Positions 3,498-15,044 of a stretch of DNA of 22,753 nucleotides are shown piece after piece. This DNA comes from a virus. Taxonomy: Duplodnaviria > Heunggongvirae > Uroviricota > Caudoviricetes. The notes below the pieces were generated by a model. That model had not been told where the DNA came from, did no database searches, and worked only from the letters and a program-made list of their open reading frames with translations. The DNA is taken from IMG/VR virus record IMGVR_UViG_2526164651_000008, positions 1 to 22,753 of that record. The stretch is one strand, 5' to 3'. A program made the translations under genes and the position numbers. Every line of letters starts with the position of its first letter. Positions within the stretch are counted from its first letter, which is position 1.

Positions 3498-4060
3498 TTA
3501 CTCAACGTCAAACGCCCGAATTGAAGCCAAATCATCCAGACCGCTCAGCTCCTCTTTCATTTCACGCTGACGGCGATAAATCTCATCGTTGCGATCGACC
3601 TGCGCCTGCACCATTGCTGCCGCCAGTTCTTCCAGTTCCGGCATCGACAGTTTCACCTGCTGATTATCGGCATCGCTCCACACCATATGTGTTTGTGCTG
3701 TGACAGATTTTGCCAGCATGACTACCGGGGACAGGCGGCCCAGTGAGTCGGGGCCAGCATTCCAGATACGACCGTTCCATTCAAACGTGAACGGCTTCGC
3801 CTCCTGTTCTGTGCGCCATGCTTCAATTCCCTGACGTCTGGCCTCTCTGGCCGCTTCCAGCATTTCTGGTGTCACAGTGAATGGGGCTATCTCACCCCAT
3901 TTGCCGCTTTGCAGTTCCTGCCAGATTTGCTGACCCGTCGAAGCGACATCATCAGCGGTGGCTGTGTAGGGGACTGCCTGGTCCCTGTCGTCAAAAAAAC
4001 GTCACAGTCTACTGCGCCACTTTCGGTATAACGGGGATTAATGATTTTTTTAATTTCCAC
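3498..4060 (-). pseudogene. tfa: Tail fiber assembly protein Tfa, frameshifted in an A7/T7 homopolymer
   Basis: GTG start at 4060 gives VEIKKIINPRYTESGAVDCDVF...; the frame breaks at the A7 run 3993-3999, and the other frame continues ...DDRDQAVPYTATADDVASTGQQIWQELQSGKWGEIAPFTVTPEMLEAAREARRQGIEAW... to the stop at 3498. Both halves are Tfa-like. Confidence 0.7.
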
Positions 4061-4070
4061 GGTGCATTCC

Positions 4071-11738: not shown

Positions 11739-12068
11739 CAGTTCACCACCTGTTCAAAATCGGCCGTTACAGTCACCCATAACGCCCCCACGCTTGCCGA
11801 CCATTTACGACAAACCACCCTTGATCGGTTTCCAGTCATAAGGTGGCGTCCACTGAAATGCGCGGACGCCACCGTGCCGTTCCAGAAAGGCTTTTAAAGA
11901 TGGGTGTTCACCTTTACGAACACGTATCGTCACGCTGTAAGTCGACAACTGGTTATTCAGTCCCGCCGCACGACGCTGTTCATAACCATCGCCCAGCTTC
12001 ACTGTCACCACTTTCGGCTCTGATACCACATTCATATCCGGGCGCACTTTCCAGTGAAACGTCTCCAT
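11738..12068 (-). pseudogene. M: Minor tail protein M with a 1-nt frameshift in a G run
   Basis: METFHWKVRPDMNVVSEPKVVTVKLGDGYEQRRAAGLNNQLSTYSVTIRVRKG...TPPYDWKPIK matches lambda gpM, then stops early. The adjacent frame continues ...VVCRKWSASVGALWVTVTADFEQVVN with a TGATG stop/start overlap onto L. The indel maps to the CCC run at 11818-11820. Confidence 0.75.
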
Positions 12069-15044
12069 TACCGGTATGCTCCACTTAACCGGCCACCATC
12101 ACGGGCCTGCTGTTGCATAAAGTCCGCGGCCGCTTTTTTCCCGAGGTCATAAACCACCTTCAGGGCAGCCGGACCTATCTGCCCGTTCGTGCCGTCGTTA
12201 TTGATCTCAATGTTGTACTGCGGGGCAAACATCACCATGCCTGAACCACCAGTATCCGCCACAACCCCCAGCTTACCATCAGCACCGCGACGCAGTGGCA
12301 GAATGGCTTCAGGTCCCGCTTCCCCCATCACACCCGCGCCTTTTGCAAAAGCAAAAAACGTCGGACGGTTAACCACCGTGCCACTGTAGCGACTCAAATC
12401 AGCAGACTGGTAAACACCGCCATCAGCATTAGTCGTGAAGCCGAATAAAGAACCGACGCCCTTTACCGCCTGCATCATGGCCATCTGTGCCATAATTCTG
12501 GCCATATCTGACAACAGGGAAGAGGTGAAGGATTTAAAATTCAGCTTACCGGTGGTACAGAATGTCGCCAGTGCATTACCGGCACTGCTGAATGCCACTG
12601 TAAACATCTGTTCTGCCGTTCCCGCCGCATTATCCGCATCCGCCGTAAAATTCTGAAACGCCCGCATGGCACCGTTTTTCCAGTCGCCCTGCGCCACTTC
12701 CAGTTCCTGCCAGTAGCGTTTGTTTTCATTCAGTTGTCGCTTCAGGCTCCCCTTCAGCACCTCCTCAGCCCTCCGGTAGTCCTCCGTCCCGTAAGTGCCT
12801 TTCTGGCGACTGTCATTCTCAAGCTGTTGCAACTGTTGCCGGTATTCCTGCCGGATGCGCAACTGTGCCTGGTAGCGCTGCCGCTGCTTATCCCCCATAC
12901 CTGCAGTGGCAATATCCAGATTGTGCTGCTCACGCAGTGCACGTTCTTTGTCTGCCAGCTGGCTGGTCAGCTGAACCGTTTTTTTCTCAGGTCGTTAAGC
13001 GCTGTCTGTTTCTGCAGCTCCTGCTGTTTCACATCCAGCAGCGTCAGCGCCTGAATCAGCTCATTCTTACGGGCCAGCACACTCTTTTCATCTGCCGTCA
13101 GCTTTTTCCCGTCCAGGTCGCTGATGCGCTGCTGCAGGGCCAGAAGCTGTTTATGCGCTTCAGTCATCCTTTCAGTGGCAATGCCTGCTGACTGTCTGGC
13201 AGCAGCAATCTGCCCTTCCACCTGTGCCTGCTGCTGACTGTACTGCAGCAATAACCGGGTGGCCTCATCATTACGGGTTGCCCGTGTATTTTTCTTAATG
13301 GCTTTTTCGTAACGTTCATTTTCACGCTGTATCGCCGCATCCCTGACAGCCTGGTCGGCGTACTGCATGGCATTAATACGCGCAATTTCCCGCTGATGTC
13401 GTGCAGCTCCCGTTTCATTCATCCGGTTCAGCGCGGCATTTTCAGCATTCCGGCGTTTTTTCTCCTGAAGATCGTTAAGACGCTGCTGATCGTACTCCAC
13501 CTGTGTGGAGGCGTTTGTCCACGGATATTTTTTCGCGCGCTGAATTTTTTCCTGTAACGCATCAATCTGCGCATCCAGCGAGTCTTCACGACCAATATTC
13601 ATGGCCGCATCCCAGAACTGCTTCCACCAGTCAGACAAGGTTTGCAGCGTACTACCCAGCGCATTGAGATTATTATCAATATCAGATGTGCGTTTACCGG
13701 TTTCCTCTGCCAGCGCAGACATGGCGATCCGGGCCGCATCACTGGACCGCCCCTGCTCCCCAAGGACGCGTATCTGCTCAAGCTGAGTGGCAGTCAAAAA
13801 ATGCAGCGCATTGTCCAGCGCCTTCGCGGCATTTACAGGATCATCCTTCAGCCGCTTAAACTGATTTATGGTATCGCTGACCGACTGGCCAACCGATCGC
13901 TCCATCTGTGCGGCAGCTTTCGCCACCATACCAATATCGTTTCCATGAAATGCCCCACTGCCCACCACCTGTGCCAGCGCACCGGCTGCCGCATGTTGCG
14001 TGATACCATTCCCGGATATGGCCCGGCTGAGTTTCCACAACTGCCCGACAGTGACACCGGCATAATGTCCCGTCAGCGCCAGCTGACGGTTAAATTCCTC
14101 GCCCTCCTTCCGCCGTCATGCCAGGCTTTACCCAGACCCAGGACCGCCGCGACAAGTCCGCCAATAACGCCGCCAGTCATCATGCCTTTCGGCGACATCT
14201 GTGCGCCTGTCCATCCGGCACGGTTAGCCAGCGTTATCCCGGATCCCCTCAGCGCACCAAAATTGCCGCGCGCCATCTGACTGATTAACACCCCCAGCTC
14301 CCGCCGGGCTGCCGCACTTTTCAGCCCCAGCGAATGTGTGGCTTTTCCTGCCCGCTCCATTTTGCGGATATACACTTCTGCAGCACTGCTTACCCCCAGC
14401 TGAGCCGCCCTGGCGCGAAGCAACTCAGAAGACGACAGATTCTGGCGGGTTGCCTGCTCTTTAAGCTGGCGGATAAACGCCGCTTTCTGCCGGGTGGCCT
14501 GTTCCTCTGCCTGCGTCAGGGCACGGGTTTTCGCCGTGATCTCCGAAATCAGCGCCAGATAATCCTGCTGACCAACCCCGCCACTGTTTCTGGCCTGTCG
14601 GATCTGCTGCTGAATACGCTGTAATTCCTGAAGCCCCGCACCGGCCTGTTTCACACTGTCAATCTGGCGATAAAAGGCGGCAGCCGCTTTATCCTGCGCC
14701 TCCGCCAGTGCCCTGGCCTGCGCCTGTTCCTCGCGCATTTTCTGATTCAGGGCATCCACGCGCAGACGGGTTTGTTCCACCTCACGGGCCATGCGTTCAT
14801 GAGCCCGTGCATTCTTCTCCACCGTCTGCGCATGGGCTGATGCTGCTGTTGCAGCCGAAGAAGCCGCCTGCATTGTCTGCCGGGCCGCCTGAGTCTGACG
14901 CTCCATAAAACGCTGCATACGGGCAGAAGACCGTTCTGCATCGCTGGCTGCACCATTCAGAAGGTTTTTGATACGGGGAATTTCATTTTTAAACTCTGCC
15001 GCATCAATCCCCAAATCAATGACCAGGTTGGCTATCTGGTCCAT
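12068..15044 (-). pseudogene. H: Tail tape measure protein H, split into three ORFs by two frameshifts
   Basis: N-terminal ORF (MDQIANLVIDLGIDAAEF...), middle ORF and C-terminal ORF (...INNDGTNGQIGPAALKVVYDLGKKAAADFMQQQARDGGRLSGAYR, an H-type C-terminus) are collinear once the frame is changed near 14101-14113 and at the T7 run 12979-12985. The middle portion is coiled-coil rich. Confidence 0.8.

Follow-up and report, generated by a model that had tools for sequence, protein, structure and literature searches.

Lineage-fixed frameshifts and probable homopolymer under-calls in the tail module of a defunct ipaH-carrying prophage of Shigella flexneri K-227

Results

A lambda-type tail module beside an intact ipaHe gene

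The 22,753-nucleotide stretch of DNA analysed here (the window) is 100.000% identical to the Shigella flexneri K-227 draft contig AFGY01000037.1, and we consider it likely that positions 3498-15665 represent the tail module (G-T-H-M-L-K-I-J-lom-stf-tfa) of a defunct, ipaH-carrying lambda-like prophage in which three frameshifts are genuine and lineage-fixed and two others, the A7 run of tfa and the T7 run of H, most probably reflect under-called homopolymers. A first-pass annotation of the same DNA had offered pseudogenisation and homopolymer sequencing error as competing explanations for the broken frames; neither accounts for the whole set, with pseudogenisation holding for J, M and the single-G loss in H, and error the probable explanation for tfa A7 and H T7.

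When annotated proteins of relatives were compared with the window using tblastn, the tail proteins from G to tfa all mapped in order and collinearly to the minus strand, matching the tail cluster of bacteriophage lambda (Z-U-V-G-T-H-M-L-K-I-J-lom-stf-tfa) in both gene order and protein families from G through tfa. Phages such as PhiR55_1, cdtI and mEp460 are ~90% identical over J to G, and intact-gene versions located by ipaHd/ipaHe in the EIEC-type E. coli genomes RMDEC364, FDAARGOS_943 and FDAARGOS_944 are 98.2-98.8% identical. Next to the module, on the plus strand, lies an intact ipaHe gene for a type III effector E3 ligase (1675-3318; IpaH_Shig, 563.9 bits against a cutoff of 550). Within the module, the intact genes, all on the minus strand, are the stf-like gene for a tail fibre N-terminal domain (4071-5528; 470 of 470 residues aligned, 96.6% identity), lom, encoding an Ail/Lom outer-membrane protein (5550-6149; 199 of 199 residues, 98.5%), the tail assembly genes I (9753-10295; 180 of 180 residues, 100%) and T (15016-15345; 109 of 109 residues), the minor tail gene L (11040-11738), whose exact protein occurs on at least 1000 contigs, and the C40 peptidase gene K (10292-11035). 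A shift had been suspected at the 3' end of K; instead, all 247 of its residues align without a change of frame, and 57 contigs elsewhere carry the exact protein. The stf-like gene falls in a multi-copy repeat (2371-5159). In CP026803.1, the ipaHe/btsS flank and the tail module are separated by ~280 kb, and their junction in the K-227 contig may be a chimera formed across this 2.8-kb repeat.

Irrespective of the status of A7 and T7, the prophage is dead, because IS600 truncates G, the head genes lie inverted, and V, U and the greater part of Z have been lost. The tail chaperone gene G (15354-15665, minus strand) lacks its first 25 codons, its alignment starting at residue 26, and homology to the relatives stops at 15665; from the 15665/15666 junction onwards, an IS600 element of the IS3 family (15666-16928, minus strand) stands in place of the start of G and the V, U and Z genes. 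In tblastn searches with the relatives' proteins, V and U had no match in the window, and Z matched only over residues 1-68, inverted. A block containing FI, a head-tail joining gene and the start of Z (about 70 codons; 20727-21752, plus strand) is inverted relative to the tail module and sits behind an IS110-family (ISEc20-like) transposase gene (19298-20494, minus strand), which separates it from a displaced lambdoid late-regulatory fragment carrying rusA and the Q antiterminator gene (17068-18113, plus strand). The complete, potentially functional tail set of Z, U, V and full-length G is thus absent, and a module with these gaps cannot build a tail. Together with four frameshifted genes, these losses and the inversion are what distinguish the K-227 module from that of lambda, and they contradict the first-pass impression of little other decay. 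Other assemblies of the lineage likewise have G truncated by IS600 and lack V and U.

Five frameshifting indels, two of them in long homopolymers

Base-level alignment to the closest intact relatives, in which the reading frame is unbroken at each of the five sites, identified five frame-shifting indels: A8 to A7 in tfa (3993-3999), a 4-bp deletion of CGTC in J (6992), an added T in M (11821), T8 to T7 in H (12979-12985) and the loss of a G in H (14112). They split a tfa-like DUF4376 tail-fibre-associated gene (3498-4120), the tail-tip/host-specificity gene J (6217-9692), the minor tail gene M (11738-12068) and the tape-measure gene H (12068-15044), all on the minus strand. The frameshifts listed in the first-pass annotation for tfa, J, M and, twice, H are therefore all present, although its statement that several lie at homopolymer runs holds for the A run of tfa and the T run of H and not for the other three of the five lesions. 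In M, the change assigned to a C3 run is in fact a T-to-TT insertion beside that run, which is itself unchanged.

The broken genes are, as had been claimed, well conserved in both halves. By tblastn with the proteins of annotated relatives, the fragments of J, M, H and tfa jointly span the full length of each protein and are 82-100% identical to the matching stretch of the intact protein, or 94-100% if the N-terminal piece of tfa is set aside, a 51-residue piece whose alignment extends beyond the shift.

The J, M and H (14112) lesions are shared by independent assemblies

None of the lesions in J, M and H at 14112 is in a long homopolymer. The J deletion turns CGTCCGTC into CGTC, with the loss of one CGTC unit, and is identical in 12 of 12 independent assemblies spanning the site; the exact truncated 930-aa product is found on 7 contigs and the 228-aa C-terminal fragment on 35. 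The added T in M is present in 11 of 11 independent assemblies covering the site, including locus L018, where J is still intact, as it is in the EIEC-type relatives, and the exact 87-aa frameshifted product is found on 25 contigs. In H, one G of a GG pair is lost clade-wide; the 323-aa N-terminal fragment with its frameshift tail occurs exactly on 18 contigs, and a variant that differs at one residue but ends in that tail occurs on 624, giving a total of >640. H additionally carries a genuine, lineage-wide, in-frame deletion of 63 bp (21 codons) near 13448-13467.

The first-pass annotation had proposed that identical lesions in independent isolates would mark genuine pseudogenes. Such identity, across different sequencing centres, was found for the J, M and H (14112) lesions and for the 63-bp deletion, and was not found for tfa A7 or H T7, which are confined to the K-227 draft or the batch of drafts to which it belongs. 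Judged from these shared genotypes, the J, M and H (14112) changes are genuine pseudogene lesions fixed across this S. flexneri lineage, because they are identical in a complete genome (CP026803.1), in three other drafts (K-272, GCA_902503095.1 and GCA_902504065.1) and in seven Logan read-set assemblies (ERR217034, ERR217031, SRR5330748, SRR11290991, SRR5293238, SRR33416648 and ERR5896775). Since the H-14112 tail is on >640 contigs, the lesions are lineage-fixed and not recent, contrary to the suggestion of a recently inactivated prophage. These three frameshifts and the 63-bp deletion would be inherited products of commonplace slippage at small repeats, or of replication errors, in genes that selection no longer maintained.

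These observations leave almost no room for the explanation that every frameshift stems from an error of sequencing or assembly and that the living strain has intact tail genes. It is true that two of the five lie in runs of 7-8 bases, and the draft is an old one with demonstrable private run-length differences, but for J, M and H (14112) this reading is already refuted by the shared genotypes: the lesions lie outside long runs and recur unchanged in 11 or 12 independent assemblies, which several centres produced in different years, the truncated products are found on hundreds of contigs at the protein level, and a 4-bp deletion is no homopolymer error. The truncation of G by IS600 and the loss of V and U are likewise shared.

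The tfa A7 and H T7 alleles are probable miscalls

A different pattern was observed at the two long runs. The H run is T8 in 10 of 10 near-identical assemblies (99.95-99.99%), and T7 on that background is found only in K-227 and its own read sets, SRR059822 and SRR059823, the latter assigned to K-227 because the adjacent accession SRR059822 carries the private rusA nonsense allele of this strain (CGA to TGA at 17200). The 620-aa product of T8 occurs on 30 contigs and the 320-aa product of T7 on one. In tfa, A7 is limited to two contigs of K-227, one of the two K-272 copies and the draft of strain 2457T, and A7-specific products are absent from Logan; A8 is found in CP026803.1 (both loci), in three EIEC-type genomes and in 12 short-read contigs representing >25 read sets. 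Among the Logan assemblies listed for the A8 tfa product, none is from the K-227 runs. A 125-aa C-terminal tfa fragment of the 2457T-type copy, found on 30 contigs, was considered as support for A7 and rejected, as IS truncation and contig ends produce the same ORF (loci L030, L031 and L034).

All the one-base contractions private to K-227, namely A8 to A7, T8 to T7 and two T6 to T5 changes (19243 and 20738), occur in long single-base runs and are private to one assembly or batch, the profile expected of artefacts. From the comparison of assemblies, A7 in tfa and T7 in H are therefore probably miscalls of the original sequencing or assembly, and we infer platform error as the cause of the private contractions. 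Drafts of 2010-2011 such as that of K-227 are presumably 454-based. The K-272 draft also has private run indels of its own. CP026803.1 could not serve as the gold standard for every run length: at 18195-18201 it alone has T8, compared to T7 in nine others including the window, and thus the complete genome is not error-free either. Once it had proved an imperfect standard, every site was re-genotyped across all loci.

It is unlikely, though still to be reckoned with, that all five frameshifts are genuine, A7 and T7 having arisen in K-227 by strand slippage in useless genes, possibly aided by a mismatch-repair defect. When the reads of K-227 itself are assembled independently by k-mers (Logan), T7 is again obtained, in both samples, so that T7 is more than an assembler quirk, and T7 may alternatively be a true, K-227-private slippage event; this is plausible because the H run is truly variable elsewhere and because H was already dead, leaving no counter-selection. 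The sharing of A7 by K-227 and K-272 could indicate a true sub-clade, and K-227 has at least one private substitution, the rusA nonsense change, that is not a homopolymer artefact. Against this, the four private contractions in ~20 kb accompany a single SNP, a 4:1 ratio far from that of the other lineage assemblies (~10 SNP sites and one indel; p ~0.013, Fisher's exact test) and equally far from the indel:substitution ratio of roughly 1:10 in E. coli mutation-accumulation lines. Moreover, although the tfa copy in the 2457T draft (ADUV01000039.1) reads A7, restoring A8 there gives a product that matches AAP17278.1 of the finished 2457T genome exactly; this is a same-strain test at the homologous A run of 2457T rather than at that of K-227. 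Finally, A7 is present in two paralogous copies in K-227 while the two copies of K-272 differ from each other, one being A8 and one A7, a distribution that fits a recurrent miscall better than inheritance.

Length variation of the H run across S. flexneri lineages

In addition to the T8 allele described above, the H run has T7 in a different lineage (ERR5908489, GCA_900484215.1, AKNF01000331.1 and ERR1541657, the last standing for at least 20 samples) and T9 in CP026788.1, CP026871.1, CP026793.1 and SRR35896918, such that T7, T8 and T9 length alleles occur between lineages. As the run is truly mutated in these lineages, homopolymer context alone is not diagnostic of an error. Several T7 copies showed no other lesion in the part of the module inspected (U-V-G-T-M-L-K-I, with J called full-length). 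One could imagine the 8-base run as a recurrent, possibly selected inactivation point of ipaH-carrying prophages in S. flexneri, which would provide either fast prophage immobilisation that locks in the effector cargo or a reversible switch; we regard this as very doubtful.

A functional role for the shifts themselves, through programmed ribosomal frameshifting or an on-off contingency tract, is still less credible, to the point of near-exclusion. Lambda-type tail modules use one programmed frameshift, at G/GT, and three natural length alleles of the H run might recall phase variation, but the two-frame arrangement is not conserved at any of the five sites in the intact relatives, and what is left of the module cannot make a tail in any case. 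In the K-227 lineage, H is also already broken upstream at 14112, leaving the length of the run without consequence.

Discussion

The locus is an ordinary one, of a kind already known. Cryptic ipaH-carrying lambdoid remnants of Shigella and EIEC have the same layout, in which ipaH adjoins a lambda-type tail module interspersed with pseudogenes and with IS600 and IS110-family elements, and the K-227 copy does not differ from them in kind; it has lineage-specific lesions (the 4-bp loss in J, the added base in M, and the lost base and 63-bp deletion in H) and rearrangements of its own. A familiar picture is confirmed, in which the virulence gene stays intact as the phage that delivered it decays: ipaHe is the cargo that is kept. 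The value of the finding is mainly practical.

The private one-base contractions of K-227, contradicted by relatives and, for 2457T, by the finished genome of the same strain, resemble the homopolymer miscalls of draft assemblies, although that comparison covers just two of the five lesions here and the H run is truly variable in other lineages. Run lengths that track clades have been taken as real, with sporadic outliers as possible errors (PMC4746626), and the criterion used here is alike. Among the pseudogene calls in older Shigella drafts, true lineage-fixed lesions thus stand side by side with run-length miscalls, and close relatives can separate the two without recourse to reads. In this 12-kb block, where five lesions were called and three are supported, pseudogene counts of the type cited for Shigella genome decay would be ~40% inflated.

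Five frameshifts in the tail module and their distribution among relatives

Annotated versions of the lambda-type tail module (3498-15665, minus strand) lie beside ipaHd or ipaHe in complete E. coli genomes, where BLAST found them at 98.0-98.6% identity. These relatives are enteroinvasive-type strains (e.g. RMDEC364, FDAARGOS_943/944) with the intact gene set tfa(DUF4376)-stf-lom-J-I-K-L-M-H-T-G-V-U-Z. J-G matches lambdoid phages at ~90%. Base-level alignment to the intact relatives identified five net frame-shifting indels: -1 in tfa at 3993-3999 (A8 to A7), -4 in J at 6992 (CGTCCGTC to CGTC), +1 in M at 11821 (T to TT, adjoining CCC), and two in H, each -1, at 12979-12985 (T8 to T7) and 14112 (GG to G). 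The remaining small gap clusters cancel and keep the frame, and tblastn with the relatives' proteins splits the genes at the same positions. The first-pass annotation had therefore placed the tfa, J and both H sites correctly; its M frameshift is real, its mechanism slightly off, being an inserted T beside CCC. It had also suspected the K 3' end of being out of frame, which it is not: by tblastn, K (247/247 aa), I, L, stf, lom and T each occupy one intact frame. Long homopolymer runs hold only two of the five lesions (tfa and H 12979-12985).

H additionally lacks 63 bp (21 codons), in frame, near 13448-13467; its length is 3042 bp in a relative vs 2977 bp in the window, a difference of 63+1+1. 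The deletion sits between short direct repeats (…EKKRR/…QQKRR) and is common to the whole lineage. A separate in-frame deletion of 101 codons is found in H of other lineages (625 vs 726 aa).

To separate inherited lesions from errors, we used the fact that a truncated product with a frameshift-specific tail matches exactly only where the lesion is shared. Exact matches were found elsewhere for the truncated products of J (930 aa, 7 contigs), M (87 aa, 25 contigs) and the H N-terminal fragment (323 aa, 18 contigs), and a version of the H fragment that differs at one residue but ends in the same tail, …WHDGGRRARNLTVSWR, was found on 624 contigs. The contigs with truncated products come from NCBI and Logan read-set assemblies, the named ones being S. 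flexneri K-227 and K-272. Assemblies were also compared as DNA, both from NCBI (CP026803.1, complete, 4,481,548 bp; K-272; GCA_902503095.1; GCA_902504065.1) and from Logan (ERR217034, ERR217031, SRR5330748, SRR11290991, SRR5293238, SRR33416648, ERR5896775). These lineage assemblies are 99.95-99.99% identical to the window, and J -4, M +T and H -G are identical in every one that covers the site. The lesions at 6992, 11821 and 14112 are therefore genuine, inherited and lineage-fixed, as is the 63-bp deletion. A more distant Logan assembly, ERR317006 (99.0% identity, ~ window 5145-12458), has the M insertion with CGTCCGTC intact in J, which suggests that M was disrupted before J.

The tfa A7 and H T7 alleles as probable draft artefacts

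The contig AFGY01000037.1 (S. flexneri K-227 draft, GCA_000213735.2) is 100.000% identical to window 1-22068; the window therefore derives from this draft. At 12979-12985, the run is T8 in 10 of 10 near-identical assemblies and T7 in K-227 alone. Correspondingly, the T8-specific H product (620 aa) was found on 30 contigs, and the T7-specific product (320 aa) on the K-227 contig and in Logan SRR059823, where two samples share the contig. K-227 also has a private nonsense allele of rusA (17068-17427; C to T at 17200, CGA to TGA, 44-aa product), and because this allele recurs in Logan SRR059822, we take SRR059822 and SRR059823 to be K-227's own runs. Consequently, T7 in H was seen in no independent isolate of this lineage.

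At 3993-3999, A7 is limited to K-227 (two contigs), one of two copies in K-272, and the ADUV draft of 2457T, whose locus tags are in the same style as those of the K-227 and K-272 drafts. A8 is found at both CP026803.1 tfa loci, in three EIEC-type genomes and on 12 short-read contigs (>25 read sets), including ERR2170xx runs and SRR5330748, which bear the lineage's other lesions. When A8 is restored in the 2457T draft copy, the 187-aa product equals AAP17278.1 of the finished 2457T genome; for 2457T at least, a draft of this batch therefore demonstrably reports the tfa run one base short.

Across ~20 kb, K-227's private differences from the lineage consensus are four one-base run contractions (A8 to A7, T8 to T7, and T6 to T5 at both 19239-19243 and 20734-20738) and one substitution. 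The latter two runs are T6 in all other covering assemblies, including K-272, 2850-71, CP100042.1 and several short-read contigs. The other lineage assemblies combined have ~10 SNP sites and one indel. The indel is at 18195-18201, where T8 is confined to CP026803.1 against T7 in nine other assemblies, the window among them; the complete genome is probably in error there or has changed privately. Comparing K-227 with these pooled assemblies (contraction:substitution 4:1 vs indel:SNP 1:10; Fisher p ~0.013), the pattern is a run-length miscalling signature, in agreement with a published guideline by which run lengths shared within a clade are taken as real and isolated deviations as possible errors (PMC4746626). 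Private one-base indels in short runs of K-272 (4053, 4242, 15709) are consistent with miscalls across the draft batch. In S. flexneri K-671 (~ window 14080-14112), a 323-aa H fragment leaves the frame a few codons further on than the window's (…WHDGRKEGENLTVSWR) but ends at the same stop, through either a distinct lesion close by or one more miscall in a draft.

That all five frameshifts are genuine in K-227 is improbable in light of these data, although Logan's independent assembly of K-227 reads also gives T7 at 12979-12985, and this run is truly polymorphic (T7/T8/T9) in other S. flexneri prophage copies, from read-set assemblies and complete genomes alike. These copies are ~98.6% identical and are without the J, M and 14112 lesions. 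T7 occurs in ERR1541657 (at least 20 samples), ERR5908489, GCA_900484215.1, AKNF01000331.1, SRR059778 and SRR061726, splitting H into 713 + 276 aa (713-aa product on 21 contigs), and T9 in CP026788.1, CP026871.1, CP026793.1 and SRR35896918 (726 or 625 + 276 aa). In several of these T7 copies no further lesions were seen in U-V-G-T-M-L-K-I, and J was called full length. Slippage thus has a natural hotspot in the H poly-T run, and lying in a homopolymer does not in itself prove an error. Three genuine lesions plus two miscalls nonetheless remain the likely explanation. The first-pass choice between real pseudogenisation and homopolymer error, judged by independent isolates, thus divides, and the useful outcome is this partition: K is undamaged; the lesions in J, M and H (14112 and the 63-bp deletion) are real and have been inherited; and the shortened runs in tfa (A7) and H (T7) probably reflect errors in an old draft.

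Contig joining and wider decay of the prophage

The tfa site lies within a 2.8-kb multi-copy repeat (2371-5159; ipaH 3' half, tfa, most of stf). In CP026803.1, window 1-4288 maps near 1.15 Mb, at the ipaHe/btsS locus, where an IS600 has inserted at 4288, and window 2371-22064 maps near 1.43 Mb, at the ipaHd/aspS locus; the ipaHe/btsS flank and the tail module, joined in the K-227 contig, are thus ~280 kb apart. The K-227 contig spans this repeat, in which all short-read contigs end at 5145. It may be a chimera; alternatively, an ipaH-mediated rearrangement may distinguish the strains. In either case, the consensus over 2371-5159 is the least trustworthy stretch of the window.

The frameshifts had been described as accompanied by little other decay, which does not hold. 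Homology to the relatives ends at 15665, G starts only at residue 26, and IS600 follows (15666-16928). Past it lie the late-regulatory genes rusA and Q, on a displaced fragment that also holds four tRNAs, an IS110-family element and, inverted, FI, a head-tail joining gene and Z residues 1-68; V and U are absent from the window. CP026803.1 and K-272 share this architecture. Quite apart from the frameshifts, the prophage is defunct. ipaHe itself (1675-3318, 547 aa) is intact (IpaH_Shig, 563.9 bits vs cutoff 550). The prophage is nothing new in kind, being a typical example of the cryptic, IS-riddled, ipaH-bearing lambdoid remnants of Shigella. The four tRNA genes are arranged in tandem downstream of the Q antiterminator (18290-18600; Met-CAT, Arg-TCT, Thr-TGT, Gly-TCC).
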